DNA of 64,000 nt from Schmidtea polychroa (taxonomy: Eukaryota), in assembly GCA_044892525.1 (NCBI GenBank), contig CM097885.1, forward strand, positions 34,412,001 through 34,476,000, in the 5' to 3' direction. The notes under the pieces were generated by a model. It was not told the origin of the DNA. It did not search any database and worked only from the letters and a program-made list of their open reading frames with translations. A program made the translations under genes and the position numbers. Below are positions 17,664-43,426 of the stretch, one piece after another. Every line of letters begins with the position of its first letter. Positions within the stretch are counted from its first letter, which is position 1.

Positions 17664-17746
17664 AACCTTAATAGCGCAGTGGGCTAGACTGACACAGTGG
17701 TTCAAAATGCTAGTGGTTCAAATCACATCTGAGGTTAGTTTTTTTT
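17664..17746 (+). ncRNA. tRNA-like Pol III unit, inner copy, right TIR
   Basis: A box TAGCGCAGTGG 17672-17682; GGTTCAAATCA 17715-17725; T8 run 17739-17746. Confidence 0.55.
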
Positions 17747-17896
17747 CAACATAAAATAATATTAAAAATTTGAAAATAATATTGAAAATAGTGTGGGTAT
17801 CTTATATTTATAAAGTACTTGTATATTTTATTTTATTTATTTTATTTTATTTTATTTTTTTTATAAATTAAAAATTAAAAAAATGACAAAAATTCA

Positions 17897-17980
17897 AACC
17901 TTGATGGCGCAGTGGGAATAGACCGGCACCGTGGTTCAAATGGATAGCGGTTCAAATCCTAACTGTGGTTAGTTTTTTTT
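17897..17980 (+). ncRNA. tRNA-like Pol III unit, outer copy, right TIR
   Basis: A box TGGCGCAGTGG 17905-17915; B box GGTTCAAATCC 17949-17959; T8 run 17973-17980. Confidence 0.6.
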
Positions 17981-19599
17981 CAACATAAAATAATATTAAA
18001 AATTTGAAAATAATAGTGTGGGTATCTTAGATTTATATTTTATTTTATTTATTTTTATTTTATTTTATTTTATTTTATTTTATTTATTTTATTTTATTTT
18101 ATTTTTTAAACATAAATATGAAAAAAAAATTATTGAAACGGGTGATGGTGGCGAACCGGTAATTATCGCCACCTGTCTTTCGAACACCCCCGGATCGATT
18201 CTTTAATGTGCACATTTATTTCTCAGTTGTTTTCGGACCTCTTTCGAATTCACTTTCGAATTCATTTGTAATTTCGAGCAGCACACTTAAAACGCCGATG
18301 AAATCGTATTCGAGCGAGAAGCGAATAATAAGGTGTGCTGCTATTATCGAATTGATTCTGATTATGAGCCTGGCCAGCTTGTATATTGGAAGAGATTTGA
18401 TAAACGAAAGAGGTTGAATAAAAAAAAAATGATCCGGATCAAAAAAACTGTTGAGAGGACAGTGAAAAAAAAAAAAAAATACCACTGTCCTCTCAGAGCA
18501 GTTTTACTATTTTCATAAAATTCTTTATTCTTCAAGACATCAAGATTAAGATTTCATTTATTTTTTTTAATTAGCCAATTAGCAACTTGCTAGTTGGCAT
18601 CCTCAAGTAGCCTTCTTACTTTTTCATAATACCATTTTCTTTTCTATTCTCTTTATGTTTTTAGTTTGAAGCTTTTGAGTTTGAGGCTTTAAAGATTAAA
18701 ACAGTTAGAGTCATTAAGGGTGGTTGTTTTCAAAATATAGGGTTAAAATACTATAAAAGTATAAGTTTTAGGTTGTTTTTCTAATAGCTTAAGTGATTTG
18801 GAGGCATGTTTTGTTGGGAGGGCTGTTTTGGTTGGGTATATAACCACACTACTCGGCAATAACCATTTGTCATCCCGATTTCGATGAGTATATAAGGAAG
18901 GGGAAAATCAGAACAAATCGGCCTCAGCTAGGGTTAGAAGAAATCGAGCTTAGGAAAAGGTAAAAACGAATTTAGGAGATTAGGGAAAAAGAAGAGATAG
19001 AATAAAAATAAAAAGGGTGAAAAAGGATCAAATCAAAAAGAAAAAGGAAAACGTTGGTCAAGAGAACCTAAGGAAATAAAAGGTGAACATTATCTTTATC
19101 AAAGCATCAACATCGAGCGTAGAATCAGTCAAACTCGAACTGTTGGACTATTTATTATTGATTGTGTATTATTGAGAGAAAATATATTTTGATTTCAATA
19201 TACTTTGGGTCGTTTATTGTTTTGATTTAAAGGACACGAGGAGTCAGAGGTAACCGACTTAAATTAACTGAAAACCCAACAATTTAATAAAAGGCAACGT
19301 TTAGATGGGCCAGGAAATTCAAGTTTTTTAAATAATACTAAACAGGCATTTAATTTAAAAAAAATCTTTGAGTACTTTAATTATTTAAAAATTTTTTTGG
19401 GTCGTTTGGAGAAATATTTTAGGATTTTGGGTCGTGACCAAAAATCCTTAAGAACCGCTGATATAATCCATCAAATTCCTCATCAGATTCAATATTAAAG
19501 AGTTTAAACACCTTGTCCAAAAAATCTGGAATTTCAGATTCAATTTGATGTTCGATTTCTTCTTCAGATTCTTTTCAGATTCTTCTTCGCTATCAATGG

Positions 19600-20160
19600 G
19601 ACGAGATATCATAGTTGTTACCGATTCTGTTGGATATTCGCAGATATTTGTGGCTTTAAATCCATTCTAATGCAATCCGATATTACTTCACACCAACATT
19701 CGTAAATACATTAACATACTTCAGCATAAGAGGCACTTTTCATTGATCCAGACTTAGTGAATGAATGGTGACCATTGATCATCCAGTCCTCCCATTTCTC
19801 AAGCATTTGGATTCAAAAAGATTTATTGACACTTAGATCTAGTGGTTGTAATTTAGATGTCAGTCGTCCAGGAATAACAGCCAAGTGTGAATACTCTTTC
19901 ATCTTTTCTTTGACTTCTCCTGTGATGTGAGGTCGAGCCGAATCATGGATTAAAACTGATTTCTGACAAAAAAATAATTCTTGAGTTTACGCTAAATGTT
20001 TTTTAACCAATAGCTAACCATATCCGCGTCACCCCATCCCTTTAGTTTGCTGAGACAACAACTCCTTTAGGGGATACATCTTTAGGAATGGTTTTTCGCA
20101 TTTCCACCATCGGCTGTACCACACAAGACAACAGTAAAATTGCACTTTTCATTGAAAAAA
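19600..20160 (-). pseudogene. pogo-family DDE transposase remnant
   Basis: Minus-strand IHDSARPHIT..LAVIPGRLTSKLQPLDLSVNKSF and FTVVLCGTADGG; frameshifted; boundaries approximate. Confidence 0.8.
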
Positions 20161-20162
20161 AA

Positions 20163-20436
20163 TGTGGTATTTGGGGAATTGTGATTGGCCCATTATAGTT
20201 GTAAATGTGTGAGGCGACTTACTATAATTTAGTTTTTATCTGATGATAGGATGTTGATGAGGAAGGGTCGTTATTAAAATAGACCTGATATTTTACAGCG
20301 TCCTCCTTGGAGTGATGTGTGTCACTCTTACTAAATTTAGAGTTAAGGGGATTCAATTTATATTATATACTAATTATATTAATAAAATTTTTTATTAATA
20401 ATAATGCTAAAATTAATAGTAAAATCCTTCGTTACA
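20163..20436 (-). repeat. Putative 3' LTR of the Gypsy element
   Basis: Minus strand: purine tract GAGGTGAGGGG-AT, then TGTAAC..ACCACA. Confidence 0.5.
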
Positions 20437-20447
20437 ATCCCCTCACC

Positions 20448-21726
20448 TCATGTCGATATGCACTTCGCGTTTCGTGGTTTAAAGTAAACTGCATCACCAA
20501 CTTGGAACGACGTGTCCTGTGTCTTCTTTTCTGTATAACGAGCGCCAACTTCTTTCCAACAATATGAAAACACGGATGAAGACGGTAGCGTTCCGCACTT
20601 GTCATTGAGTGCTAGGTTATACCAATATACCATTTCCAATATTCCCTTGTTGGTTCTTGCTGCATTGCGTTTAATTGTACGATGGTTCCGTTCGATTATG
20701 CCGTTTCCCGATGGCCGATAAGCACATCGAAACACACATTTCACACCAAATTTGCGACACAGTACTTTCATTTGTATCGACCGAAATGATGTCGCATTAT
20801 CAATTACCAGCTCATCGGGGGAACCTCCTTCTCTAAAGATCTGTTCAAGATTCCGTGTAATGGTCTCCGCGTCTTCACCTATTATTTCTCTCCACAGAGC
20901 AAAACGACCCGGTCCACAATCAATCATAGTTAAATAAAGCTTACTTAGATAGTGTGTAACATCCATAGCCAGTCTCTTCCACGTCTCCTTAACGCTTAAC
21001 TTTCCATGCTCCCATTTTACAGGCGCCGGATCGATAGATTGACATTCTGAACATTCACTAATTATAGCCTTTACATCCGGGCAAAGTTCCTTTGCAAAAT
21101 ACAACGTCTTCTTGGCACCGAAATGGTGCTGTCTATGACTTTCTCGTAACACTTGGCTCACAACAGCAACGGTGCTTGCAGTTGGTTCGACACACGATTT
21201 AATCCATGTCAGCCATTTATTACTGACTCTTGTCAGTGCATCTGCTTTGTTTTTATCTGTCGGGACAAACTCAACCGCGATCGTTAAGTCATAGCTTTTT
21301 CGTAATTCACAAATGATCTGCAGACGTCTTCGGACTAGCATCTCAGCAATTCTGGCAGTATCCGTTAAAACTGTATCTATCCAACTCCTGACGTTATCGG
21401 AATCTGTTGCTACAACTAAGTTGCTTCTTTCACAGCTGATGGCTAAGTTAATTCCCTTTATCACAGCGTCTAACTCTGCAAGGTTTATATGAGCAAAATC
21501 GTTTTTCTTTCTCATCCATGATGCATCTTCGACGATTTTTCCTGATATTTCTAACGGAACTCCTAATGCCAGATTGCTCGCATCGCAGCAGACAATCGTA
21601 GATCCGTCCTTGTTTACGTGCCACTCACCAGTCACGGGATCGCTCTCTTTCACAGGATACATCATTTCGTTAACCATTTTTAACGCGATTTTTCCAATCG
21701 TATCATCCCACTTACTTCCAGCACTG
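20448..21726 (-). pseudogene. Gypsy RNase H plus integrase
   Basis: CDAS..HINLAELDA..TDS..NKADALTR; HHFG..CSEC; LAMDVTHY..IDNAT..GIIERNHRT. Confidence 0.9.
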
Positions 21727-21939
21727 TGGTGGGTTACAGGTGGTCAAATGTTTGTTATTTAGTGCTGTTACCAGCGTAACCCAAAATACAACGTTGTTTT
21801 CCGCTTGGTACCCGTTGAGTAATCAACGTTGGTACTGTACCAAGGGGTGGAGTACTCGCAAAAAGTGAGCGCACCAAGGGCACTATAATTGTCGAGTACT
21901 CTATGGATCCACGGACTACCGTTAGAAGGTTTGTGTCCG
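21727..21939 (-). ncRNA. Conserved multi-hairpin RNA structure at the element 1 terminus
   Basis: Four stems that covary with 30376-30593; GCTG-GTAA-CAGC GNRA loop. Confidence 0.6.
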
Positions 21940-22105
21940 ATTTACTCAGGTCCCTTACCGAAATTGTTTTCCCAAACCTCCACACGCAAATTTTCAGTCA
22001 CCAAGCAATTATAAAACAAAATACCTCATATACCAATTTAATAAAATTTAAAAATATACACCAATTTAATAAGACTTAAAATGAATCATTGGCATAACTG
22101 GTTAG

Positions 22106-23162
22106 TCACATCGCAGACGTTTGCGTCGGTGTTGATTTATCTTGGCGTTCCTGTTCGGCCAACCTGGCTTTCTTTAGCTTCTCTCTGATATTGCGTCCTA
22201 GCCGCTTTCGTTTGGGTTTGTTTACCGCAGCCGGGGGGTATATCTCTGCCAATTCTACGGTCAGCGGCCGGATTTGTCTCATCGCGGCTTTGTGTATAAA
22301 TTGCTCGTTGTGCTTGCTTTCTAGCGCGCGCACTTGTAATTTCAATGCGCAGATCTCCATCTGGTCCTGGGTGGCTTGGGCTTGAAGTTGGAGGATTTGT
22401 GCGGTCTTTTTCTTCATATCTGCGGGGCTGAACCAGGTGCCCTCGAATTCCCGGCACTTCCACTTGAGTTTGTCGACCCGGACTCGGAGATCTTCGGCCT
22501 GTTTTTGGGCCTGTTCCCGATCTTATTTTAGAATAATTTAAACACTAAAACATAAAGGAATTCATTACCCGCATCCATACAAAAGGAAATTCATTTAATC
22601 ATATAGTAAGATAATTAATTAACGTAGGTCGCCCGACCACTAAGGTGTACTGTAATCGCTAAAACCCACAACTTGACAACAACATCATTTATTAACTGAG
22701 GTACATAAGGAAAATTATAATTAGCTAATTTATTATATGAGATACCAAAGAAAACTGGTTAAGACAAGTCAAATATCATTTGTCATAATACAAAGTGTAA
22801 GGATCGTCAATAGTTCACGCTGCGTACTTACGGGGCCTTCCTCTCTTTCGTGAGTGCGCCTCGGCGTCTTCCAACTCTTCCAAGGGCACTACTTCCCTTT
22901 TGGCCCGGAGCTGGAGCTCGATCTTCTTCAGCCGCATTTAAGCAGCCTCCACTTCGATGGCCGCTCGATCGCGGGCCTCCTGTAGTAAGTCGTTCGTGGG
23001 TTCCGTCTTCACCCACGCCGGGGCGTCAGGTTCTGGGCCAAAATTATCCAGATCCAGACCGCGGTTCCAATCATGAATGCCGTACCAGATGTACCGGGTA
23101 CGGAGCCGGGTGATCATCTGCCCATCGGCTTCCCCATCGCTGTAATCGTCAGAGTGAGACAT
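22106..23162 (-). pseudogene. Two-exon coiled-coil gene in element 1 (exons 23162-22832 and 22544-22106), degenerate
   Basis: Homologous to 28897-30274 (RLRTRYIWYGIHDW; CREFEGTWFSPADMKK); GTAAGT donor at 22831; acceptor at 22545; premature stop at 22938. Confidence 0.7.
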
Positions 23163-26100
23163 TCCTACAATGCAAATCTAAATCAGGACACTTTACACAA
23201 ACTGAGATGAGTCTTTAAACACAGGATTTTTATTAACTCCTTCCCCAACCTACTAATTCACTCTGCCATCGTTCAACCCTAAGAACTCTAAAATACCCGC
23301 CGAAAACATAGACGGGCGGACGAAAACAGGGGTGGTACTAAGATATTGCCCGAGTTTTAATTATAACATGAAGTTTATGAAACTTATCGAATAAAATGAT
23401 GATAAAGACGTACGGAGAAAGGGCATCAGCCACGGAGTTCTTCATTACAACTTTGCATTCTAAATTAACTATTTCTTAGGTTTGTAACTTAGTTGACGAA
23501 TTTAATGGAGTAATATAACTAGCGAAATAACTACAACTATAACTTAGAATTCCGAAATTGAATTTTCTTATTTTATCCTTTAAATTAATAAATAAAAAAA
23601 ATTTAATAACCCCAAGTATTAATGTAATAAATCCTACACCTTATCTGATAATATCCTAAAAATTATTGAAAATTCATTTTGTTTAACTTAACTATTTGAG
23701 TTTTCAGAATTTTGTTTACCACTAGATGGTAATTTAAAATTTAATATATGAATTTTTTATGATTTTATGAAATCGGGTAATTTACCACTAAACTCGGGTA
23801 CATCGGGGCGATAAGTATTAGTGGCGAGCTTAGTTTCTCGTTTGCTTACTTCTCCCTCGGTTGTGCTCGTCATGAGTGGTGCAATCTCCTTTTGCTAGTT
23901 TGGAAGTAATTTATTTATTAGCAATAAATTTTCATTTTCAGGTACGTTTGATGGGAATTTTTTTCTCGGACGGAGATGGTTAATTTTAACTTTGAGAGGT
24001 TGTCATACGACTCCTTGCTGGTAATTTCGTTTTATGGTTTATAACGATTTCACACTTGTAATTTGTTAATAATAAAGTTTAGTATTTCCTTGTGACAATG
24101 CTTTTATATTTTATGTAAAGTACAAATTCATAATTTATTAATAATTTATAAAGTTGTCTTTTATATATTTCGGTAATCTGTACTATTTGTCTCCATACTT
24201 TACTGGTAATTCAAATAAACTTAATTAATCATTTCAAGTTATTAAGGCAAGTTTTATCTAGCTCCTAGTTTCAGGGGAGCTAAGTTAGCTAAGATGTTTC
24301 CGTTACTGCTAAGCTTGGGCCAAATCAAATTATTATATAAGTATATTTACTTACATTTACACATATACCTATATGTATACACCCGCCCATATCCTTAATT
24401 AAAATTAATAGCCATAACATTTTCTCCGGGGGGGAGTGTTACTAAAAATAGATTTTAGGAATTGTGACAGTTCTTATTGGAGCAAAGGGTGTCGATTCTA
24501 AATTTAGTTGTGGGGGGAAATCCTAAATCGATAATTCGATCAAATTTTGATTTTTTGGTAGATAATAATATAATAATAGTGTTGGGCTAGAACTGACTTC
24601 TAGACCCAAATTTCTAATTGTGACCGAAATGTGTAGGTACACAGCATGCAAAAAGCAAAAAAGTATAGTTAAATATTAAAACTACACCAAATAACCCATA
24701 GTAATTAAAGGAAAAAACAACAAAAACCTAAAACACAGAAATTAAATAAAATTATACAAAAACAAGAAGTTATGCAAAATCTAACTCAAAAATAGCCAAA
24801 TAAACACAGAGTTACAAAAAAACAAACTCGAATAACTTAAAAGATGGTAAAAATAGCAAAAAATTCCAGGAAAACCCAGAACATTCCATAAAAATGGCGA
24901 TGACCATCATAAAAGCTACCTTAAACAATAAAATTTAGAAAAATAAATAAATTAGTATTAAAAATAAAATTTCTTAAAAAGAAATTCGTAAAATATCAGT
25001 TAAAAATAAAAATTGAATTAAAAGTAATATGGAATGTTCTGGAACCGTTCCAAATCCATCATGGAGGAAAAATTAGCAAAAAATATTTAGGAAATAAAAT
25101 TTTAAAAATAAAAATAAAAATTATGACGCAAAAATCGCCATTAAAAATATCATAATTACAAAATAGAAACGTCTGGAATAAAAAGAATTCGAGTTTGTTT
25201 TAATGCATCAATACATACACGTGTACAAAATAGGTATATATACCGACGCATTTTCGTCACAATTCAGATATTTTTGTATGCCAAAAAATTTTTCTGCCGA
25301 ATTTTCGAACCATATTGAAAGTAAGGATGGTATATTTATTGTATAACTATTATTCATTTTTATGATATATTATAATGATTCTAATTTTTGTCACCTTTTT
25401 ATTATGATCCGATTATTCACAACAAGAGTGACCAGCGTCGTCGTGAGCGGATTACATCCACGACGCTGATCAGCCTTGTTTCCAATAACTACTTCACATG
25501 CACGATACGGGTCTACGACCCCACATGCACTAAATTTCAATTTTTTTACCGGAAGGTCGCCACGAACAAATGGTTTCTAACCAGGAGTAGGGCGGTAAAT
25601 CCATCCAGGTAGTTGGCATAGTCGCAGGGACTATGCGGACGAAATAAAATGCGGGCAAATAATCGCGGGAAACATATTACAATAAGGCCTATCGTACCGT
25701 ATTCAGTTGAATCGGGAAAGTAGGAAAATTTTAATTAATTCGACCTTCCGGTAAACGACACATCTAAAGTACACACTCAAATATTCTATAGGAAATACAT
25801 CATTAGGAACAGCTAAACGGGAAAGATCCCAGACTCAATTTATCACAAAAGTTATCAAGTAGTCGGCTAATTGCACAAACTATCATTCAATATGCTCAAT
25901 ATTAACTATTGTTATTAGATTTTATTGATATTATTCATAATTATGTTCGATTTTAAAGATAATCTAATCACGTTCAATGATATATTAATTACAAGTCTTT
26001 ATCCTTACCTTATGGGTATTGGAATTCTATTTTGCCTTAATAGTAATATCACCCCCAGAATTATTATCATTATCCTCACCACCCTTCTCTCGTTATCTCC

Positions 26101-26269
26101 ATAGAGAGTGTGTCATTACCATCAGTACGAAATTGCATAAATCAGCAGATTAAATTTAAAGGGCAATCTTCCTTACCAATGTCGTAAAGTCGTCGAATCA
26201 CCAGTTCATGGTTATAACCCAACTGGAATGTGTACAACTTACCTGGTTTCATAAATGGTTCCTTGAATT

Positions 26270-26770
26270 ATATATTTATGGTCCGATTCATAAATATCCT
26301 AACTGGTTCTGGTATAGATATTTATCTTATGAAGTATTAAAATGATAGTTGGTAAATTTTCATTCATAAATATCCTAACTTATTATGATGTGTATCTTCA
26401 TCCTATAAAATATTAAAATGATAGTTTGTAGATTTTTATTCATAAATACCCTACTCATCCTGATGTATATATTTATCCTATAAAATATTAAAATGATAGT
26501 AAATTTTCATTCGTAAGTATCCTAACTTATTCTGAGGTATATATTTATCTTATAAAATATTAAAATGATAGCTTGTAAAATTTCATGCATAAATATCCTA
26601 CCTTATGTTGATATCTATATTTACTTATAAAATGTAAAAATGATAGTTTATGAATTCTCATAAGACGATCCTCTGAATTATATACTTACCGTCCAGTACC
26701 TAAAAATCCTAATTTATTTTGATATATAATTAACTTACAAAATGTCAAAATGATAAATCTACGTAACTAG
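26270..26770. repeat. ~60-bp degenerate minisatellite
   Basis: Recurrent TTCATAAATATCCTAACT..TATAAAATATTAAAATGATAG. Confidence 0.7.
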
Positions 26771-27069
26771 CCTCTATGTTATATATTTACCTAATTGTCC
26801 TAGATTCACTTAATTTTATATATATTTAGCTTATATAATATGGAACTACTAATTTATAAATATTCATAAACATCCCCCCTGAATCCTATCTTCATTATCT
26901 ATTGTACTAATATCCGAAAGTAACCTATCCAATATATACTTAGTCTGTAAAATGGTAAACTAATAATTTCATGAACACCCCCCCCCCCCTGAATTATACA
27001 TTTATTACCAACTGCATAAAACTTACACTTCTTATCAGGATTAACCTTATCGTTATTGCCATTATTAGC

Positions 27070-27276
27070 ATTGCTATTGTATTATCTTTAATGTTACGAT
27101 TATGATTATCGTTATTATTATTATTATTATTATTAGTATTATCATTATTATTATTGGTAATGTATCACTATTATTACTATTTCTATTATTATAATCATTA
27201 TTATTAAAAATTATTATTGTTATTATCATTATTATTATCATTACCATTATTATTATCATTACCAATACTATTAATT

Positions 27277-27308
<32 letters not shown>

Positions 27309-27350
27309 TTATTATTACCCTTAATATTATTATTATTATTATTATTAGTA
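27070..27350. repeat. Imperfect (ATT)n microsatellite
   Basis: Direct reading. Confidence 0.9.
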
Positions 27351-28896
27351 ACATGATTATCAATAGCATGTTACTATTAATAGGAAAATTCGAAACCGAC
27401 AGTATCGATTTTTTTTTCTTCCCCTCATAACAAAGTTAGACCAATAATACCGCTTCTATTATTAGTAACAACCCTGCAAACCAAGGGTTACCCCCTACGA
27501 ACTACTCCTAACTGACCGAATAGGTGGCACCTACTCTCCCCTACACGAGCCAATCGCCATCGACCATGTCAGTCGGAACTCTAATCTTTCGATGAAACCT
27601 ATCCCACCCATGCGAATTTAACCCTTGTTACCCCAGAAGTAGATCGCGTGTAAGCCACGGAGCCTAGTCCCCGAAAGTGACGGTCTGAATCGGAATACCC
27701 ACTCAATAGGACCAAAAGTAAGGAATAATAACCAGTCGTGATTCTAACTATATAGGTTCTCATGAGGAGTTAACAAAATTAATCGATAAGTATTAACTTA
27801 CGTCAAACAAAATTACTTAAATAGGAATCAACAAAAGCGAGAATGTATTTAATAAAATCAAAAATTTTGTTTACAAAACTATTCTAATCACAAAAGGAAT
27901 CTTACTGGTAATATTAAGGAGTGTCTAGAAGGGGACAACTCAGAAAAACTCGAATCCCAATTTTCACTTTAAATTCATGTAGCGTAGATCATTAAAATCA
28001 TGAAACAACCATGAAATTCCAAAAGTCTTTCCCTAAATGGCCACGAATTGGGAGTATAGCCATGCTTTAGATTCCATTAAACAGTAATAGCTCCAATACG
28101 GTGGATGATTGAAATACAAAACACTGAGGGATTAGAGACCCATTCCTGAAATTATACAACTACGACAGATAAAAACTTCAACTTACTGTCGAGCACCAGC
28201 TGAGGAAAGAGCCGCTTACAACCACTATGGTCAGGGATTCACAAAGAGCTGAATACAAATTCATACAATTCGCGACATCCACTTCCCATAGTGGGTTAGA
28301 GCAGCCAAATTCTAATAACTCCGTAAATAACGGATTTCCTTTTGAAAGTTAACTCATCAAATTAACAAATAAAATATTTTTGTTTAATTAACTTAAACAA
28401 CAGATAGTTTAATATTGAATTTATAAAATATAAATTAAATTTTTTTTATATTAATTATTCAATCTGTAGTAGCGACGTTTGATTTATTTTATTAGTACTT
28501 AATTTTTGGGTTTAATTCATAAATTACCCTTTTATGGTATTGATTATTAAATTGACAAGAGGGACTTTACAGTTATTTCGTAAAAATTTCGTTAAGGTTA
28601 AGTCATCCATTTGGACTATCAACCCAGTGAAAACTAGGATGATAAAACTCGGACTTCTAGTACGCGAACAAAAAGCAAGGTGGTAGAGTCGACTAAAGCT
28701 AGTAGAAGGGGGTATAAAAGCGATTACGAAAAGTAGCTCATAATTTAAACTAAACCGCATACAGAGACTATGGTCGATTGGGCGAAATGCACATCAGATT
28801 AGAATGTAACTTTGAAGGCATATTCAGACGGATTGAAATAACCCCGTAGTGGAAGAGCCAGGAGTCGTTCTAAATGCCTCTTTTATCATTGCAGAT

Positions 28897-30274
28897 ATGT
28901 CCAACACCATGGTATGGAACGCACAGGCCGGACCCTCATCCTCCGATTCAAGCCGCGAACCAACTCGCGAGGAGACAGACGAAGCCGTACGATTACGGGA
29001 GGACGCAGAGGTTGCTCGCCTAAGGTCCCGGTGGATATGGTACAAAATCCACGATTGGACCTACCAGAATGTGGTTCCAGTGACCCCGAAGATCGAACCG
29101 TATATTAACTATACGTCACTGGCTCTGAGCGACGCCTTCGACAATGTGAAGGAGGCGGTGGACCGACTGGACCGGCTCGAAACATCAGTCCTGGCCGGCG
29201 AGTTGGAAGACATCGACGGCTACGCCCGGGCCCAGTGCCACCCAAAGCGGACCGCAGCTCTTCCCGGGGACTGGAGTGCCTACGAACTTCTCGACGGGGA
29301 CCGGAACCGGCGAGAAAACGCGGGCGTCCGCGGAAAACCCGCCCAACTCAACCAAGATAATCGCCGGGCCAAATATCCGCACCTTGTGATACGACTTCGA
29401 GTGGACTCGCTTTCCGATACAATTGATAATGATGATCTTACTCACTATAATGATTAGCATGTCTCGACTTCGTTATCATCGCAGTGTAAAGTGTGGTTGT
29501 CATGCAATTCTGTATTTGATTTTCTTTTAACCTATGTGCAAAGTGTTATTCTTTTATGTTTTGTTTATTAATATTAAGCTAATTGTTTGGATTCCCTTAT
29601 TGTATACGTATATACTGATATTCCTCTAAATGTTGACTATTATTACCAACCTCATAACATCTTAGTGAAACTCATAGGACTGGATTTGGGGTTTAGGTGC
29701 GCACTGATGCGGGCTGCGACGGGGAGATTATAGCTTATGCCACAATGGTGTTAGCGATATAACGTGGATACTTGACGAAAGTGCGAAAAGATACTAATTT
29801 TTACTTATTTCAGTGTTAAAACTCCTGGAAGAAATGAGAACAGACAGAGAGAGGGCGCAACAACAAGTAGAAGAATACCGGGCCAAGTTAATGCGACTTA
29901 AAGCCCATTGCCGAAATTTCGAGAGCACCTGGTTCCCGCCCACAGAGATGAAGAAGCGAATGAAACTCATCACTCAACTGCAACTCCAGAGCGCCCAAGA
30001 TCAAGTTGAGTTGCGGGCCCTCCGCCTGAGAGTGAGAGAGCTGGAGGTCCAGTCACACCAACAAAACCTTGATCGAGAGGTCATCTCCAGGATCCGCCCT
30101 ATGAATGAGCTGCTCCACCAACGAAAGGAATGTGCAGCGTCGAAGATCTCGAAGAAAAAGATCCAGCCGGGTAAAGCGGCGCGGGCGAAAATCCGCCAAG
30201 CCTGTCAGGCCCAAGTGACACTCAAGGCTACTTCGTCAGAGTCTGCACCGAAAGAACCGACTATAACCCTATGA
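28897..30274 (+). CDS. Spliced coiled-coil gene of unknown function in element 2 (exon from 28897; exon 29814-30274)
   Basis: Two GC-richer ORFs homologous to those of element 1; TACTAAT..TTTCAG acceptor at 29813; CATTGCAG acceptor 2 nt before the ATG; donor not identified. Confidence 0.6.
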
Positions 30275-30375
30275 GTTTTGATTTTGTGTTGTGAATAAAT
30301 ATTACGGGTGTATTCATATCTGGGCATTTCGAATTTGCCATAATGTCGATTTTCGGAATGGGGACTAAAGAAAAT

Positions 30376-30593
30376 CGGACATAGGCCTTCTATCGGCAGT
30401 CCGTGAACCCTCGTGGGTACTAGACAATTATAGTATGCTAGGCATGCTCACTTTTTGCTAGTGCCCAAACCCTTGATACAGTACCAACGTTGATTGCTCA
30501 ACGGGTATCAAGTGGTCAGCTATAAATTGTATTCTGGGTTACGCTGGAAACAGCATGAGGGGGTAAAGATTTTTCAGTACCTGTAACCCACCA
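30376..30593 (+). ncRNA. Conserved multi-hairpin RNA structure ending in a 7-bp stem plus ACCA
   Basis: Compensatory changes relative to 21727-21939; G-U pairs and a GCTG-GAAA-CAGC loop on this strand. Confidence 0.6.
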
Positions 30594-30597
<4 letters not shown>

Positions 30598-30669
<72 letters not shown>

Positions 30670-30730
30670 TAATAATAATAGTAATAATAATAATGATAAT
30701 AATAATAATAATAATAACGATGATAATAAT
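30598..30730. repeat. (AAT)n microsatellite
   Basis: Direct reading. Confidence 0.95.
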
Positions 30731-30929
30731 ACGAATTATATCTCCTAGTTTAATTTGTATGCATTCATAATTTATAATTCAAGTTTAACATAAAATTATA
30801 CTTTATATTCTTGGCATAGGATCATATATTTAAATGTAACTTAAGATTATGCGTTATAGTTCAGGCAGGTTATCGTTTAGGAATTAGGTATTTAATATTG
30901 AATTCTAGTTTATACTTGAGGCCTCGGAT

Positions 30930-31630
30930 TTATAATTTATATTTCTATACATTATAATTTTTATATAGCTATTTATAATTTATATTTTACTAATCAAAAT
31001 CCATTCTTAATTTATATATAACTGTTTATACTTTATATTTTTATAATCAAAATTGATATATAACTAGTTATAATTTATTTTCTACATTTATAATTTATAT
31101 ATAACTATTTATAACTTGCATTTTATAATCAAATTATATTTATAATTGATATATAACTATCTATAATTTATATTTTTATAATCAAATTTTATATATAACT
31201 ATTTATAATTCGTATTTTTAGAATCAAAATATATTTATAATGTATATATAACTGTTTATAATTTATATTTTATAATCAAAATTTATAAATAACTATTTAT
31301 AATTTATATTTTCGTAGTCAAAATTTATCTATAACTATTTGTAATTTATATTTTATAACCAAAATTTTGCATATAACTATTTATAGTTTGTATTTTAAAA
31401 CCCAGATACATTTTTAATTTATATATAACTAGTTACAATTTATATTTTTATGACTAAAATTTTTATATAAGTATTTATGGGTTGTATTTCTATAATCAAG
31501 ATATATTTACAATTTATATAGCACTATTCATATTTTATACTTTTATAATAAAATTATATTTATAATGTAGGTATAACCATTTATAATTTATTTTTTGATA
31601 ATCGAAATATAGTTATGATTTATATGTCGT
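30930..31630. repeat. AT-rich degenerate minisatellite
   Basis: Recurrent TATATAACTATTTATAATTTATATTTTTATAATCAAAA. Confidence 0.75.
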
Positions 31631-33497
31631 TATTTTGGATTTGGAAATTATAATTTATCATTATCATGAATTTGTAATCTACAGTTTACAGTCAGTATGA
31701 ACTCGCAATTTATACTTCTAGGGAATACAATTTACATTTTCATAACTAATTATAATTTATATTTTTAGGAAATTAGGATTAAAATTTATACTTTATAATT
31801 GTCATAGGGTTACAATTTATAGTTTATCGTTAATATAAATTGGAAATCTTTAATTTCAAGAAATCAAATTTATAATTTATACTTTTATAATTAATCCTAA
31901 TTTCCCTTTAGAAGAAATTAAAACCATAAATATAATCCATAATTCTATTGAGATGATATTTTATACTCTTATGGGTTTATGATTTGTATTTTTATAGTCA
32001 GTTTAAAGTTTATTCAATTTAAAATCTAAATCTGGCCGATACGTATGTCGAACACTCTGATGAATGCCATCACTACTAAATCAATCATTAAAGAAAATCT
32101 TTACTTTACTAGAAAATTTATTTGGGACATTTCCATTCTTAACGTATAGGCAGAGTCGGTTCTGGATGAATTCAACCGTTTATATTAAGTGTGAATTGTA
32201 GAGTTGTGATTAATTTAGGTCTGAGATCTACTCTGTTTATTAACCTTATGTTGTTTGTATTGTAGTGATTTTTAGTGTTGATTTTAATTATGTTATGCAT
32301 TGAAGTCGGGAAGAGTGTTTGCTTTCGCGGCCCCACTGGGACCACTACGACAAAGCTTACTGTTCTGTGGTAAGTCAACCCTTTACGGCTGACCTATAAT
32401 AAATAGGTAGAGTCAGACGGAGGATTTCATCGACTTAACTCCATGACAGGACCATGAGTGGTGCGACCTCCGAATGACCCAAACAATAAAGGAATATAGT
32501 AAAGATAATGCGTGTCTGCATGTTGTTGTGGTAGATTTTATAAATGATTGAATGTAGGACCGAACAGAGACGCAGGTGTATCAATACGCCACTGATCACT
32601 CGTACATCCAAGAAAAAAAAATTTAAAAAGAGTTAGGTTGAGACACAACTAATAATATTAATAAACATGAATAAATAAAATATCAAAGCTTAGGTTGAAA
32701 TACAAATAATAATATCATTAAACATAAATAAAATATCAAAACCTACAATTGAATAAGGTTGCAAGTTTTTTCCAGAAAAAAAATTTGGCATAAAAGAGTG
32801 TTTTTGTGACTAAAATGCGTCGGTATATATACCTATTTTTGTGTGTGCAAGTACACGTGTATGTATTGATGCATTAAAACAAACTCAAATTCTTTTTATT
32901 CTAGAATTTTCTATTTTTTAATTTTGATATTTTTAACGGCAATTTTAGTGCCATAATTTTTGTTTTTATTTTTAAATTTTTATTTTCTAATTATTTCTTG
33001 TTAAATTTACCTCCATGATGGACTTGGAACGGTTCCAGAACATTCCATATTAATTTTAATTTAATTTTTATTTTAATGGTGTTTTTCCTAATTTCTTTAA
33101 GAATTTTTATTTTTATGACTAATTTATTTATTTTTGATAACTTTTATTGTTCCATATGGCTTTTGTGATGGTTATCACCATTTTTATGAAATGTTCGGGG
33201 ATTTTCTAGAATTCTTTACTGTCTTTACTATCTTCTAAGTTATTCGAGTCTGTTTTTCGTAACTCTATGTTTCTTTGCTATTTTTGAGTTAAATTCTTGC
33301 ACAACTTCTTGCATTTGTATTATTTTATTTAATTTCTGGGTTTATATTTTTGTTGTTTTCTCTCTTAATTAATATTGTTTACTTGATGTATTTTTTTTTA
33401 TATTTAACTGTACTTTTTGCTTTTTTGCGTGCTATGTACCTACGCATTCTAGCCACATTTTAGAGTTTTGGGCCTAGAAATCAGTTCTAGCCCAACT

Positions 33498-34372
33498 ACT
33501 GTGTCGTTTTATATAGCTACTTGCTACTCTTAACCATCCAGCAACGGGATAGTGCCCAACGAGTTGACCGCATAGGGAAAATAACTCCCTTCTTGACATA
33601 GTTGTAAACGCACTGTGTGGCAAAATGTTTCCAGGATGCCACGTACGACCGTTAATACTTGTTTGAAGCTGAAGACCTAGCACTCTTGCATCATCAAACT
33701 CTTCCGATGGCTTTGTAATTAGCCTGTATGCTGCTAAATGGCTTATTACTTCATTGACGTTTATTCTTGACTGGTTGACAATAATGTCATCAATATAACT
33801 ATCCGTTGCTTTCCTGATATCTTCTCTTAAACTCAGTACCTTCCGTAATATTGTTGACATTATTTTCGAAGCCACATTTAAACCAAAACCGAGTTTCGTT
33901 AGAAAGTATCCGTTCCCTTTGTAACTAACTCTTTGGTGCTCCCATAGGTCTTCATCAACATGTATCTGAGATCAATTAACATAACCTGTTCGCCCATAAT
34001 TTGCCATCGCCTTAATGATTCGCCACATCCATCACTTTGTCCAGTATGGCTACTTACATATTTATTTAGTTCTCGAAAATCCATTACTGGACGAACTTTT
34101 CCTTTGTTTGCTTGCTCTACTGCCAATAACGGAATTTTTCCATACACGGCGTCTTTCGTTCGAATTAGCCATCCTTCTTGAACCCACCGTTCAACCTCCG
34201 TGTCAAACTTGTGCTGCAGCCCTGGATCGATTTTATAATTTGAAATTCTATTCAATAGTACAGCTGGTTCTGCTTTCCATTTCCACTTCAAGTTCCACTT
34301 GCCGTCACTGAATGCTGCCAAAAAATCACCATCTTCAATTCGCAAATTCTCATTTAACTGATTCTCAGCCAC
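33498..34372 (-). pseudogene. Gypsy reverse transcriptase, frameshifted
   Basis: KVRPVMDFRELN; LGFGLN..ASKIM; SYIDDIIV; VLGL. Confidence 0.9.
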
Positions 34373-36098
34373 TCACGATACGTTTCCAATATCTGGAAAA
34401 GATACACCGGTCTTGTCAATTTTAAGACCTTCCAGCATCCCTATTACGTCCATTCCTAAAATCATTTCAACACTAAGTGGTAGTTTCATCATCGAAACAC
34501 AATTAACACTCAATAAACTACCACCAACAATCAGCTGAACTTTCACATCACGCATACACTTGACTAATGATCCATCCGCAGTCATGATACTCCCATTCCG
34601 TATAAATCGTTTCTGATTTGGAACATCCCGAGTATATCAATGCTTTCACGGACTCCCCATTGATTATGACTGAAATAAACTGCAGCGCCATTATATTCGT
34701 GCTAGAGTAGACGCTGGCGCACGCGTTACTCCTTTGGCATTTCCTGACTCTGAATTCCTGGTACACTCCTTTGCAATGTGACCCTCTTCTGCACATAGCC
34801 AACACTTCTTTCTTTGTTTCTTGAAACAACGTTCTTCTAGATGGCCATTCTTTCCGAAATACGAGCATTTCTTTTGCTTGTCTTGTTTTCCCACGACATC
34901 CGAACACAGTTCCATACTGTCACAGTTTACTAAGACACGAGACTGTTTCAAGACCTCAACAAGAGACATCTGCTGAATATTGGCATTGGATCGTAACTGT
35001 TGTGACGACACTGCTGGCAAACCCATTATGAATGTGCTTTTAATAATGATTTCGTTATCTATCTTGGCCAGAGATGCTAAGTTTTTGAGATCATTCAAAT
35101 AGGCATCTACTGGCTCATTGCACCACTTTCGTTCACGGAATCGATTGTAATGTACAATCTTATTTTTTATGTTTAAACAAGGGAACGGGACGTTGGTCAA
35201 TCTCGTTGGGCGTAAGTCTCGTTACAAAATTAATTAAAGAAACTATATAGCGATAATTTACTATGGTAAATTATCGCTATACAAATATCGAAAAAAATAA
35301 AAAAAATCGAATAAAATTATTTTTTAAACTGAAATCTACTCAAGTCAAAAGAAAATAGAATAAATCATTCCTTTACCGAATAGAATTATTTGAACAGAAA
35401 TTTATTCAAGTCTAAAGAAAATAGAACAAATCATTCCTTTACCGAACAAAATCATTTGAGCAGAAATTTATACAAGCCAAAAGAAAACAGAAACAATCTT
35501 TTCTTCACCGACCCCCGGTAGAAAAAATTAAAGAAACAGTTCTCAATATTCTCAATCACAAATCTACAAGGTGCTTATATTTCTTTGAATAAATGTTGTA
35601 ATAGTTAATTAGTTCGTTATTATTATTTAATTGAATTATAATAATTTTATTTACCTGTCATTTTTCATCTTTTATACACAACACGCACCCCGATTGTCCC
35701 GCCACATTCTTTAACGGAGACTCTATCGGGCTCTTCAGATTTCTACGCCCAATCACAAATCATATAAATACTGCTGTATATATAAATAGGGATATACAAA
35801 TACGACAATACTAACAAAATACCAATAGCTAAAAATACATCCTGAACCTTACAATATCGGTCATATGCTTGGAACATATCTATGGAATAGACATCGATTA
35901 AGGCATGTTCGATCTTCAATACGTTGCCTTTGTCTTCCGCGCTCAAATGCTGATATACTGCAAAAGCTGGTCCATCTAGATATAAAGGAATTATTGATTC
36001 CAACTCCACGATTTTTTGATTTTTGCCACTAGCTTAACTTTCTAAATCCACCGTTGAACGTCACCTTCTCCATTGAAAATAGGTATCATCTTGTCCAT
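34373..36098 (-). pseudogene. Gypsy gag (two CCHC-type knuckles) and protease, split by a 712-bp insertion
   Basis: IPLYLDGPAFAVY; CWLCAEEGHIAKEC; degenerate ALIYSGCS protease site; ILGMD. Confidence 0.85.
35144..35855. mobile_element. 712-bp insertion, probably a solo LTR
   Basis: ATTGTAA..TTACAAT termini; 4-bp TSD ATCG (35140-35143, 35856-35859); removal restores gag AYDRFRERK. Confidence 0.7.
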
Positions 36099-36589
36099 GA
36101 TATGGCCGCGATGGCTTGTAGTTTTATTGACACAATGAAATCACAACGTTTTTTAAATTCTATTTTTATCACAATATTTGCATATTAAAACAAATTTAAT
36201 TATGCAATTACAAATATTAATAAGATTTTGACTAACATATAATATAATTAATTGTGAAACTGTGATCGTTTTAAGTCTGGAGCTTTCCTCTGTTTATTAA
36301 GTGTGATGTGAAAATGTGTGATTTTGAATGTAAGTTTGAATATGTTGTTACATGAAAAATATTCGGATTAATTAAAATTTTCCTATTTTCGTGGCCACAC
36401 TGGTCTCACTACTATAGTTTACTAACATTACCTAACCTAGGAGTAGAGATGGGAAAAATAGACTTGATTTTTAAAGTTTAGTATATATATATATAAAATT
36501 AATAATAAAAATGTTTTGTTTTGACATGCTAATTGACAGTTCATATAACTCTACATTATAAACAATATACACTATAGCGTTGGTTTGGT

Positions 36590-38254
36590 TGTATCTTCTA
36601 CTTCCACCTTGGTTTTACAACTTACAAGCAAATCGTGCTAGCTTTGGCTGCTGCAAAATCTGTAATAAGTTCATTATTGTCCTTGGACAATGACCATTAG
36701 GCGTTGAAATACACTATTCCAACGAGCCTTTTTACTGTTTATTAATTTTTTGGCTCTGTTTGCCAACTGTGCATCGTATTGTTAGCCTATTTTAAGCTCA
36801 AACCATTCCAAAGTAGATGTCATATGTCCCTTTGATTTCTCATGACCAGCGAGTCTCACACTGGCATTTTCCACTCATAAATCCCATTGGCTCTTAGAGC
36901 AGACAAAGTGTTGCCAAAAAGTTTGCAACAGAAACAAAGTATTTTGTTCTTAGCTGCTGAATATATAAATCATTTTCGGTTGACAACTTCCCCATTTTCC
37001 ATAAGTCATTTGCAGTAGGTTGTAGAAAATTTCCGTCTATTGCTATCTGCTGGAAAATCTTTTTCTTCAATTTCTTTAAGCCATTGCAAACAATTATATT
37101 CTGGCAAAGTTGCCGGATCACTAAAATCATCATTTACATTTATCAAACCGACCAACTCTTCTGTTTCTTCATTTGCAGTTTCAGATATCCGTGTTCTTGT
37201 AATCTGAGAATTATCAACAATTCGAACATAAGAAGTATCGATATTAGACTCTGTTATTTTCATAAGTTGCTGCATCTTTGTATTCTTCAGAGGTTGACGA
37301 TGTTGACGAACTTCAGTTTTGTTGTACAAGAAATTTATTGAGAGATTGTGTTAATGCCTTAATTTGGCTTTCTTGCGTTGCTTTTTGCTTTTTCTTTTCA
37401 TTGCCACTTTTTTATTTTCTGCCAAAGTCGCGATCTCGATTTGGTGGCATATCCCCTCAACTATAAAATCAATTAATGGAAATTTTTAAATTCAAATAAC
37501 AAATCTTATTTAAATCATTTAAATAATTCTTATTTAAAGCTAAATAAAGTTAATTAATGTAAAGTTTGCATTTTCCATAATGTGCCATAAATTGCCATTG
37601 GAACATACTGAAGGCTAATGAAGCAAAAATCCTTTTTTTTGTTTCTAGAACTGTTAAAAAGATAAAAAAAGTTTGATTTTACAGTTTCGATTTGTTTGCC
37701 AATTTTTTGTAGGTGTTTTCAGATGGTTCAGTTTTTTTATACAAAAAAGTGAATTTTTCTTTTTTTCATACTGTAAAATTTAACGAATCAACAGTTTAAC
37801 GTTGATTTACGTTACATTTTTAAAAAAGTAACTTATTAACGATTAACGGAGTTAACTTTCTTGTTATCGGGCTAATTATTAACGACGCTAACGTTTTGAT
37901 TAATGATGCCCAGCTCTTTCTTAATAATCATTGACCACATAAAGCCCGGTATGGATAAAATGCTATGCCATTACGCCCCATGCTTATATTCTTAATATTA
38001 ATGGTAATATTTCTAAATAAATGTCATGATTGTCAGTGACAGATCGCATTTAGTTAATTTTATTATATTTGTACGCTATTTTTCTAATTATTTTATCCTG
38101 AAAATTAAATATAAAATTTTCTTGATACTGTTGTTATATAAAATACAAGTATTACAAAATAGTATTAAAATTGTAAAAAGTAGTAAAAAATGTCTAGTTA
38201 AAGCGCGGGGCGCAAGGTGGTTGCCTTGTTCGCCTTGCCCCAAGGCCGAACCTG
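36590..38254 (-). mobile_element. hAT (ZMYM1/TTF zinc-finger type) 5' fragment
   Basis: CAG-type end at 38254; minus-strand ..SGNEKKK.., DFSDPA, FIYS..LCFCCKLF, HEKSKGH; many stops; left boundary approximate. Confidence 0.6.
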
Positions 38255-38490: not shown

Positions 38491-39968
38491 ATGGAGAAGA
38501 AAAGGAAAAGAAAACGCTTTGTAGTATCATTAAAAGACAAATTAGACATAATAACTGCTTTAAAAAATGTGGTTTCGAGACGTCTTTTGTCTAATAAATA
38601 CGGTGTTGGGACGTCAACGATCTCCGAAATAAAAAATAAAGTGAAAAAATTATGAAGTTTAATAATTCTTTATTGTTAGAAGATGGAAGCTCAGAGAATA
38701 AGGTTATGAAAAAATCAGGAAAGGAAGAAGTCGAAGAGTGTATTTTTATGTGATTCGTTCAAAAACGATCATCTGGACAGCCAATATCTGGTCCATTATT
38801 GTGCGAAAAAGCAATATATTTTAATACAAGATTAAATGTAGATTCTACCTTTAAAGTAAGTTTGGGTTGGGTTGAAAAATTCAAAAGACACCATGGTGTC
38901 AGAAAACTTGAAATTAACGGGGAAAAACTTTCTGTTGACGTACTTTCAACTAACACTTTCAATGACACATTAAAAGCGTTTGTGGAGAAAGAAGGGTTTG
39001 ACGAAGAATTTATTTACAATGCTGACGAGACCGGTTTAAATTGAAAGAAACTACCCAACAAATTGCTAGCATTAAGACGCGAAAATACTGCACAAGGGTA
39101 CAAAATTAGTAAAGAATGTAATCTTAGAACGTAATCCAAGAAAGTGTCACCATAATGATGTCTGCCAATGCAACAGGCAGACACAGACTCCCACTGTTTG
39201 TCATTGGGAAATCAAAAACTCCTAGGTACTTTAAATATGTTAGAAGTCTTCTGGGTGAATATGATCATCAGAAAAAAGCCTGGATGAATGGGGAAATTGT
39301 TAAACGGTGGTATGAAAAACAGTTCATTCCAGAAGTGAAAAAATATCAAAACTATAGATAAAAGGGGAAAAAATTATTATTACTAGATAATACACCGTCC
39401 CATCCATCTATAGAATGTTTGAATCAGATCGATGAGATGTTTACGGTAAAATTTCTTCCACCAAATGCCACGTCTGTAATACAACCGATGGATCAGGGTG
39501 TAATAGAAACCTTCAAACGCGTGTATAGAAAACAGATGATTCGACGATTATTGATAGCAAACGAAAATAATGAAGAAACAGTTATCCGTTTTCATAAGAA
39601 AATAAATTTAAAAGACTGTTGCTACATGGCAGCAGAAAGTTGGAATTCTTTAGAAGTGTCAACGTTGAAAAAATCATAGAACAAAATTTTGAAAAGACTT
39701 CAACTTATGTCAACTTATGTATCTTAAAAGTATTCGCGATTTGGCAGCTTCAAAAGGAACAGCTAACTTTAAGCAAAAATCCATAATTGAATTTCTAAAT
39801 AAAGAATAATTTATTATTGAAGATATATGTAAATGTAGACAAATAAGAATTATTCATATTGAATGTATTCGTATTTCCCTGTCAATTATAATTTTTTCGA
39901 TTATCCAAATTTTCCATTATCCAGACTACCTTCATCCTCAATTAGTCCGGATAATCGACGTTCTACTG
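38491..39968 (+). pseudogene. Tigger/Jerky-like (pogo) transposon remnant with its right TIR
   Basis: CENP-B-type HTH; GWVEKFKRHHG; YNADETGL; LLLDN..SH; QPMDQGVI; ends GATAATCGACGTTCTACTG-TA. Confidence 0.85.
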
Positions 39969-41158: not shown

Positions 41159-43426
41159 TAGTAATACCTCGTATAACGCTCCCTCTTACAACGCTATTTC
41201 GTTATAACGCTCAAAAAATATTTTTGATATGAAAAAATCACTTAAAAGAATACATATACAATGTGTAGAATTACAACGTAAGAAAAACTGGTCTAATTTA
41301 GACTGTTGCCGATTCGATTGTTTCTCTTTTAAAATTTCAGTGTACGGAGTAAGACTTTTTGAAACACCTCTCTTAATAAAACCAGAATCAGTTAGAACAT
41401 TTAAAGCTTTGGCAATTATTTCTAAATTTTCTTGTAAATCTTTTTTTGTCAATTTCTCTGGCGGCTCTACACTTTCGTGATTTTGGTATAATTCGTCTCC
41501 GATTTCGATTAAATCTTCATTGGAAAGGCTTGCATCATGCAAATTGATTATCTCTTCTACGTCTTCGTTCATTAGATCGTCGAACCCCACATTATGTGCA
41601 ATTTGCACTGTTTCCACGATAATGGAGTGTAAGTTATCGGGCACAGAATTTTCATTTTCTTTAAGAAGAATTTTATTCCAAACACCTCGCATGGAATCAT
41701 TTGTAACTTCATTCCAGGAGTCTCTAATAGTTTCAATCGCCATCATGATATTGAAACTTTTCCAAAATTTCAAAATTGTTTCCTTTTGTACATCAACTGC
41801 ATGTAAAAGTTGCTTGAATGTACGCCGAAGGAAATAGGCTTTAAAATTCGCTATAACTCCCTGGTCCATCAGTTGAATCAAAGAAGTCGTATTCGGAGTT
41901 AAAAAATAACTTCCATAGGTATGGTTTTTGAAAGCGCGGCTATATTTTTTTGAATGCCCAGGTGCATTGTCAATTATAAGAAGAGCTCTGGATTCCAGTT
42001 TCTTACTCTCGCAATACTTTTTTACTGCTAGGTAGAAATATTTCACAAACCATAGGTCAAAAATAGCAGCCGTACGATTGGACATCCAAATGACAGGTGA
42101 ATTATCCTTGAAGTAACCCTTCATTGCCCGAGGATTTTCCGACTGATACAGCAACAACAGTTTCAATTTAAAATCACCTGAAGCGTTCCCACCTAATAAA
42201 AGGGTAAGCCTATCTTTGGCCGCTTTAAATCCAGGTGATCGCTTCTCTTCTTTAGAAATAAATGTTTTGGAAGGCATTCTTTTCCAAAATAACCCTGTCT
42301 CATCTACGTTGAGTATTAATTCGGGTGGATATTTTTTCTCAGCTATCAACGATTTTAAAGATTTAGTAAAATATTTCACGGCACCTACATCGGCGATACC
42401 AGCTTCTCAACAAATTTTTATGTTGTGAATATTAGCACGAACCTTAAATTTCTCGAACCATCATCGGCTTGCTGCAAACGTTTCTACTGATGAGCTAGTA
42501 TATGGTTCGTCAGAGTTTTGTTTCTCTAACTCTTCAAATAAACCTCTTGCTTTCTCCATTATGACTGCTTGACTCAATTGCATATCTCTATTATTTTGGT
42601 CTTCTATCCAGTAGTTCAACAGTTTTTCCATATTTTCAATCATTGTGTTACGCGTTCGAGAGGTTTTTGTAGCTGAAAGTGGTGTTGTTGATTGCACAGA
42701 TCTTTTAATTTTCTCAGCATTTTGCAAAATTGTTCTAACAGTTGATCCGGGTAAATTCAATTCACGGCATACATCTACTTGACGTTCCCCATTTTTTATT
42801 TTTCTGAATTACTTTCAATTTTACATCCATAGTAAAATTTCTTCTCGAATTTTTTGTTAAATCTTTCACTCTTTCTTTCCGTCCCGACATTATTGATAAG
42901 AAATTATTTAGTTATTTACAAAAATAAATAGGAACATTTCAACAAGAAACACTGATTAACTGTTTAATTTTTGTTTCTAAAAAAATTCAAATGATTTATG
43001 TGAATCCCCAAAATATAAACAAAAATGTATGGAAATTTGAAATAAAATACACAGAAATCAATTTTACTATATATGTATAATATACAATATGTAGAATTTA
43101 ATTTAGTTTTTCTATTTTGAATTTCATCATGTTATAATTTTATATGTTTTTGATACATACATATGTATTTAATTTACATAAAGAAAACTTATTTATTGAA
43201 GAAGTATCAAACATTTTTATTTTGAAGTATATATTGAATTGAATTAAATGTATGTACCTTCCATTTATTGATTAAAAATGAATTAAAAATAATAAAAAAT
43301 GGTATTTATTTAACACAGAAGTAACGTAACCCCTAAAGTTTAGTTTTGTTTTGCCTCCTATAGCGCTGTCTTCTATTACGCTCAATTTCCAGGAACGCAT
43401 ATAGAGCGTTGTACGAGGTATTACTG
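41159..43426 (-). mobile_element. Full-length Tigger (TIGD1-like) transposon with a disrupted transposase (42890 to ~41270)
   Basis: TIR (C/T)AGTAATACCTCGTA; TA TSDs; NVDETGLFWKRMP, KDRLTLLLGGNASG, IDNAPGH, QLMDQGVI. Confidence 0.92.

Follow-up and report, generated by a model that had tools for sequence, protein, structure and literature searches.

Orphan accessory open reading frames are established in LTR retrotransposons, among them CERV (PMC10309623), the antisense and ORF0 genes of plant elements (PMC7264820, PMC11963269, PMC3485330) and those of the planarian Burro elements (PMC6431247). Burro encodes a gag-env-pol polyprotein of ~5,000 aa, with BIR, MATH and BCL2 domains, between its LTRs (PMC6431247; further background in PMC8532177, PMC13465017 and PMC11410931). 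In the portions of these accounts drawn on here, the accessory ORFs lie outside the LTR, in the internal region, and are lost when a solo LTR forms, whereas the frames that we describe lie inside LTR-like units. The published signature of LTRs, as far as the source consulted goes, comprises ~7-bp TG...CA repeats plus an AATAAA signal (PMC3601003). In a different class of element, VANC of the VANDAL DNA transposons is described as having target tandem repeats that evolve fast and differ between related elements (PMC5735166).

Two related units of ~6 kb are nested in the window, by which we mean the whole 64-kb stretch of Schmidtea polychroa DNA that was analysed (~29% G+C): unit B is inserted, in opposite orientation, within unit A, and A itself splits the pol gene of a gypsy element (Table 1). 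TG...CA ends and 4-bp target duplications are present in both units (2/2), which upholds the claim of an earlier, sequence-only reading of this DNA that both genes lie inside giant LTR-like units. The ends form an inverted match of ~7 bp, 6/7 complementary in B (TGTTGGG/CCCACCA), and those of A are the same except for an altered first base, giving the joint form TG(T/G)TGGG/CCCA(C/A)CA. The pol frame of the host gypsy resumes across unit A, its two flanks reading ...IKRHS and SAGSKWDD, and the insertion point of B adjoins the (TAT)n tract of A. The two units are colinear, with firm alignment anchors in the first 800 bp, in the stretch after the microsatellite (0/500 shuffles score as high), in both frames and in the last 240 bp; in the region preceding the ATG and in the one that separates the frames, the alignment does not rise above shuffles. 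An 11-bp hairpin opens both units (z -4.3 in B, -2.7 in A). The first 800 bp are 83-86% identical between A and B while the remainder is far more diverged, and the high identity of this portion suggests recombination between subfamilies or strong constraint.

Because no internal region is attached to either unit, we read A and B as solo LTRs. They are probably those of two diverged subfamilies of a giant-LTR retrotransposon, probably gypsy-type, with their identity as LTRs and their direction being likewise probable from sequence features. Spread of the gene by solo LTRs had also been proposed, and it agrees with the LTR-type ends, the target duplications and the frequency of the family in sequencing runs. 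Contigs of four out of 12 runs (X1, X5, X6 and X7) were compared with positions 27400-30580 of unit B alone, and 4,739 contigs of one DNA run fall on this region; the LTR family is therefore abundant. Two other delimitations were dropped, namely an element start at TGTTA (24437) after a purine tract, a position internal to A/B, and a third element at 24437-27750, a stretch that consists of internal parts of A and B.

Table 1. Features of units A and B and of the split gypsy element, in window coordinates (slash in acceptor, splice site)
Feature	Position	Strand	Description
Unit B	24580..30593	+	6,014 bp; solo-LTR-like; TGTTGGG start, CCCACCA end
Unit B target duplication	24576-24579 and 30594-30597		ATAG
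Unit A	21727..33497	-	Solo-LTR-like; 5,753 bp with B and one target copy left out
Unit A halves	5' half 33497-30598; 3' half ~24579 to 21727	-	
Unit A target duplication	21723-21726 and 33498-33501		ACTG
B 5' 800 bp	24580..25380	+	83-86% identity to A 5' end (33497 to ~32700); opens with hairpin
B tandem array	26286..26661	+	Period 76, 5 copies, 78% A+T
A tandem array	~31550-30930	-	42/94-nt, ~87% A+T
B (ATT)n tract	27099..27347	+	Counterpart in A at 30598-30731, site of B insertion
B TATA-like box	28713..28718	+	Putative function
A AATAAA/TATA-like run	23234	-	
B first frame to probable break	28897..29262	+	ATG at 28897; ATG frame open on to 29457
B shifted-frame stretch	29265..29360	+	AT-hook RKRGRPRK 29313-29336; stop 29358-29360
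A first frame	22815..23162	-	115 aa; stop at codon 75; VKTEP motif; AT-hook 22850-22827
B second frame	29814..30274	+	152 aa after acceptor TTTCAG/TG; TGA ending 30274; internal Met 29834
A second frame	22106..22544	-	TGA ending 22106; shifted between acceptor (22544) and DRE (22522)
B poly(A) signal AATAAA	30294..30299	+	300 nt before B end
A ATTAAA	22070 and 22042	-	315 and 343 nt before A end
Block closing B	30351..30593	+	U5-like; four stem domains, GNRA loop, terminal stem with unpaired CCA
Block closing A	21727..21963	-	75% identical to B block
Host gypsy, gag-protease-RT half	33498..36075	-	Decayed, gag interrupted
Host gypsy, RNase H-integrase half	20420..21726	-	

The homology of the two genes, which the sequence-only reading had drawn from shared motifs, is real: 50/121 residues are identical between the second frames (E 2e-28) and 31/99 between the first frames (E 1e-11, with the internal stop of A read as X). 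Its start and stop positions were right (ATG at 28897 and TGA ending at 30274 in B; ATG at 23162 and TGA ending at 22106 in A), and all of the protein motifs that it quoted are found in the sequence. Within the 64-kb window there is no third copy of either frame. The model predicted for the second frame of B consists of long helices at residues 2-39 and 42-93, interrupted at a conserved TWFPP, and a basic tail (mean pLDDT 76.8, pTM 0.36; pLDDT 88-98 for most blocks of residues 1-90). Its structure matches are generic coiled coils or long helices only, with tied long helices at a best Z of 6.4 in VIA-align and no hit from Foldseek among viral and PDB structures at E up to 0.001.

The only outside relatives are two nameless sequences of 157 aa (P0004 and P0005), which belong to one cluster, are ~80% identical and come from short contigs. 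One match, 80% identical and to the second frame only, was found among 1.84 billion representatives, and a protein search at near length gave one relative in 50 (P0004). An alignment search with the first frame returned 0/672, NCBIfam two rows far below threshold, and the PDB sequence search a single row at E 0.7; the protein atlas recognised generic coiled coils below threshold and otherwise gave no usable match. Related loci were not found in viral or metagenome contigs by protein or DNA pattern. As had been stated from the sequence, neither frame shows similarity to gag, pol or a transposase: no Gag Pfam domain or CCHC knuckle was found for either (the gag of the neighbouring gypsy does match zf-CCHC), no pol or transposase similarity among Pfam families and PDB sequences, and no Transposase_28 (TRP28) Pfam domain in either frame.

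The first frame of B comprises, in order, an acidic start, a RLRSRWIWYKIHDW helix, a KxEP motif, an amphipathic helix, ELED and a degenerate hook, RAQCHPKR. The KxEP motif is one that we take to resemble a SUMO site. Separate helices were predicted for the first frame at low confidence (pTM 0.27). In A, the first frame terminates as RKRGRPRK-YAA-stop; at the aligned position B has the degenerate hook, and a perfect RKRGRPRK lies 78 nt beyond, in a shifted frame and followed by a stop. The octapeptide, with its RGRP core and basic flanks, is thereby present in both copies, in frame in A and in a shifted frame in B. The Pfam AT_hook family (PF02178) is the sole family listed for either hook peptide, at 16.0 bits in A (E 0.01) and 14.6 bits in B (E 0.029), both of which fall below the cut-off of 17.4. 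Elsewhere in the six frames of the window, the pattern [RK]GRP[RK] occurs once only, on the opposite strand of B's own hook.

The acceptor motifs reported earlier are present in both copies, CATTGYAG standing 2 nt before ATG-TCY and AG/TGTT at 29814 in B and 22544 in A. The claim of a shared spliced gene structure holds for these acceptors, but not for the single two-exon gene, as the phase-1 donor is present in A only (GTAAGT at 22831, within the Arg-Lys codons of the AT-hook). GTAAGT occurs 39 times over both strands of the window, and none of the 10 best-scoring donors in B is in phase 1 with the ATG frame, by scores that use approximate frequencies rather than a model of S. polychroa. The acceptor upstream of the ATG is the top of its region in B and lies outside the 5 best in A. 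The two frames may therefore be exons of one fused gene, or they may be spliced separately, which would explain these signals equally well. In the first model, the product may be a fused protein of ~270 aa, which is favoured by the donor of A and by the open frame from acceptor to first Met in B, a feature common to P0004. In the second, two products may arise through alternative acceptors; in favour of this, the hook is followed by a stop in both copies, and B, P0004 and P0005 share the position of a Met. Of 35 contig joints over 27400-30580, none of the 15 listed matches a predicted intron. Contigs of run X1 cross both B acceptors unspliced, X1 being only guessed to be RNA and contigs showing presence rather than absence. 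An upstream coding exon shared by the two units was rejected, since the stretch is open in A and closed by stops in B.

In the direction of the gene, the putative order of features is a 5' end, AT-rich arrays (U3-like), a TATA-like box, the coding region, a poly(A) signal, a U5-like block and a CA end. Given this order, the coding region would be a complete small transcription unit within the LTR, flanked by promoter and poly(A) site; a solo LTR would preserve all of it and could express it without gag-pol. We hypothesize, tentatively and at a little under an even chance, that this accessory gene inside the LTR encodes a nuclear regulator with AT-hook and coiled coil, which acts on the AT-rich arrays of the LTR itself. 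The product, be it one spliced protein or two proteins from alternative acceptors, would grip A/T-rich minor grooves through the AT-hook and oligomerise through the coiled coil. Its likeliest target would be the arrays of the LTR itself, and binding in trans would raise the transcription of family members or resist their silencing. A self-regulator is favoured because the combination of an AT-hook and an oligomerising coiled coil is typical of chromatin binding and because the nearest A/T-rich arrays sit in the gene's own unit. The arrays have different periods in the two units (42/94 nt in A, 76 nt in B), much as the target repeats of VANC differ between related elements (PMC5735166). We infer DNA binding, a regulatory role, splicing and expression of the product. 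The transactivator or anti-silencing role suggested in the sequence-only reading thus gains support from the conserved AT-hook and the AT-rich arrays of the unit, while its mechanism remains conjectural. The stronger proposition, that each LTR is a self-contained regulatory gene with a promoter, an intron-bearing AT-hook/coiled-coil gene, a poly(A) site and upstream binding arrays, we regard as doubtful.

Both units close in a structured block, and conservation over these last 230 nt exceeds that of the coding DNA. Folding is seen on the gene strand, at z -3.7 for B and -2.1 for A, and the covariation of the block, which comes from two sequences and a structure derived from them, is suggestive. 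Over the block, the summed depth of contigs reaches ~10 times the value for the gene (a ratio that is not a copy number), and the block therefore appears to be common to more subfamilies than the gene. We infer that it is a U5-type structure, and the gene would therefore be sense to the element. The last domain (30535-30593 (+) and 21783-21727 (-)) has an 8-bp stem closing a GNRA hairpin and an unpaired 3' CCA; it is superficially tRNA-acceptor-like, without a T-arm, and the loose ends of other copies terminate in ACCA in most cases listed. Rfam gave no match at E up to 1 within 18800-37500 and ARAGORN found no tRNA in the window, and a hammerhead or tRNA in the block was rejected. Positions 27440-27760 of B, considered as a second copy of the block, were also rejected (z -0.2). 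A block of 230 nt without an Rfam match could serve to mark and classify the LTR family.

The conservation and covariation of the block would also suit a Rev/CERV-like factor, which would bind the block in genomic RNA and promote either its export or read-through at the 5' poly(A) signal. The product has a basic, helical character, and AT-hooks can bind RNA too. The end of an LTR after its poly(A) signal is, however, the expected place of priming and packaging structures, and that is where the block lies; moreover, its ~tenfold contig depth suggests that the block survives in many members that lack a close copy of the gene. The precedent for such a factor is the Cer1 protein CERV, which the account drawn on describes as a spliced, nuclear leucine-zipper orphan required for export of genomic RNA (PMC10309623). 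We consider this alternative unlikely.

It is improbable that the frames are leader exons of a polyprotein, which splice or read into gag such that a solo LTR preserves the front piece only. In the sections consulted, CERV is reported to have exons in common with gag (PMC10309623), and Burro polyproteins to bear a coiled region resembling Smc, along with movable accessory domains (PMC6431247). The second frame, however, is followed by a stop and then a poly(A) signal in 2/2 copies, and the homologue P0004 stops at the same place as the second frame of B. None of 641 candidates among proteins of 267-2000 residues is homologous, which is weak evidence by the tool's own note.

A reversed direction, in which an antisense accessory gene would lie in U3 and the block would form the 5' end, is improbable to the same degree. 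Its models are the antisense ORFs of the plant elements Retand and Grande and the antisense genes of HTLV, and antisense accessory ORFs beside tandem arrays are described as common in Retand elements (PMC11963269, PMC7264820). Upstream of the gene in both units, donor- and acceptor-like signals can be seen by eye on the opposite strand (23800-24040 (+) and 28200-27900 (-)), possibly those of a divergent spliced transcript. The reversed direction would have to contend with a block that folds better on the gene strand (-62.9 versus -56.5 kcal/mol for the whole block; compensatory changes in 7/58 consensus pairs versus 5/57 on the opposite strand), with a GNRA loop that occurs on the gene strand only and varies solely at N, and with an AATAAA placed 300 nt ahead of that end. 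For the terminal 65-nt domain, either strand folds about equally well. At 27717, one contig of a run guessed to be RNA passes into a run of A, which may be the poly(A) tail of a transcript in the opposite direction or a genomic run in another copy.

The coding region formerly encoded protein under selection, the signal being clear for the second frame and weak for the first, as indicated by pN/pS and by the pattern of codon positions. Between A and B, the second frame has a pN/pS of 0.50 (bootstrap 0.39-0.64, 122 codons; pS 0.83, synonymous sites saturated), and identities at the three codon positions of an 87-codon core are 47, 60 and 37 of 87, the second position being the most conserved. 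The pN/pS of the first frame is 0.75 (0.56-0.99, 82 codons). The earlier claim of an LTR accessory protein under purifying selection consequently stands as history, but not for the present, as both copies are broken. Copy A certainly is, with an in-frame stop at codon 75 (22940-22938) and a second frame that shifts just after the acceptor. Copy B is very probably frame-broken near 29263, because contigs of other copies differ in length from it there (in run X5, about a third of the summed depth), even though 186 codons are open in its ATG frame.

This decay, together with variants in close copies that are mostly non-synonymous (5/6 of the read variants listed for the second frame of B, from 40 of 343 rows), would be expected if the frames were captured host fragments with no role in the element and a selection signal older than the capture. 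We find this highly improbable: the subfamilies are so far apart that synonymous sites are saturated, yet position and order of the two frames within the unit have been kept, and no host homologue appears among the 1.84 billion representatives beyond the one 80% identical family member. Ginger-type transposons have TG...CA ends, 4-bp duplications and terminal inverted repeats that span tens to hundreds of bp. That the units are instead a non-autonomous, integrase-type DNA transposon of this kind carrying a regulator is scarcely credible, for although their ends and duplications agree and no paired LTRs are seen in the window, the terminal inverted match is only ~7 bp, neither unit has long inverted ends or an end-to-end inverted match, and one end bears an RNA-type structure.

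Other elements occupy much of the surrounding DNA. A ~690-bp insertion at ~35160-35850 interrupts the gag of the host gypsy, and 20434-20254 was rejected as its 3' LTR, the supposed purine tract there being integrase coding sequence. Colinear fragments around the host gypsy at 40417-39969, 36460-36110 and 20420-20269 (all on the reverse strand) may represent a third, older giant-LTR member, which would give a four-level nest. A Maverick/Polinton at 3690-18853, with inverted ends of ~1.2 kb and a 6-bp target duplication, contains a protein-primed polymerase, a packaging ATPase, a double jelly-roll capsid and an integrase ORF with a phospholipase A2-like domain. Pieces of a Tigger/pogo-like DDE transposase lie at 41186-42808 (-), where 41186-42406 matches DDE_1, and, by eye, at 39362-39679 (+) and ~19500-20000 (-). 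An open frame of 431 aa at 43726-45021 (-) has no Pfam match. A very large inverted repeat at ~46500-60200, with arms (50052-52640 and 54724-57312) that are 100% complementary, holds many tandem arrays and no long ORF, and may be a foldback element or an assembly artefact.

An LTR-internal gene of the kind that we tentatively favour would have consequences for how solo LTRs are regarded. If an entire transcription unit is enclosed in a 6-kb LTR, every solo copy would retain it and relics could still regulate their family, and the AT-hook points to a concrete target in the AT-rich arrays of a high-copy animal element. If each LTR were indeed a self-contained regulatory gene, the many solo LTRs, usually deemed dead relics, would provide full-length elements with an activator or anti-silencer that acts in trans. 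Protein and arrays would then co-evolve by subfamily, as an animal retroelement counterpart of the VANC system.

Among described elements, the giant gypsy-like Burro/GYPSM1 elements of planarians resemble these units in their multi-kb terminal repeats, tandem repeats, accessory ORFs and high copy number (PMC6431247). They differ in that the accessory domains lie in or just upstream of the polyprotein, and the portion of the account drawn on mentions neither an ORF inside the LTR nor an AT-hook (PMC6431247). The literature searched held no report of an AT-hook gene inside an LTR; the original Burro description, the Burro1 functional study, supplements and repeat databases may already annotate the ORF. 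The gypsy element Cer1 of Caenorhabditis elegans similarly has an orphan accessory protein, CERV, which is helical and of nuclear type (PMC10309623). Retand TRP28, Grande gene23, the Smc-like ORF2 of PvRetro13 and Retrosat2 ORF0 are, in the accounts drawn on, also orphans, often nuclear or coiled-coil, and proposed regulators; these plant elements share with A and B the nearby tandem arrays and the long LTRs, which exceed 3.2 kb in Retrosat2 (PMC11963269, PMC7264820, PMC3485330). The antisense ORFs of the Retand type differ from the frames of A and B, which lie inside the TG...CA unit and give no TRP28 match. Coding sequence inside an LTR is itself familiar from MMTV sag and other retroviral ORFs that overlap the LTR, in U3 upstream of the LTR promoter, whereas in A and B the frames seem to follow the promoter and precede the poly(A) signal. 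Although VANC belongs to a plant DNA transposon and has no domain in common with the A/B product, its likeness, an element-encoded protein that binds fast-evolving tandem repeats of its own family, offers the working model for how such an LTR-internal regulator might act (PMC5735166).
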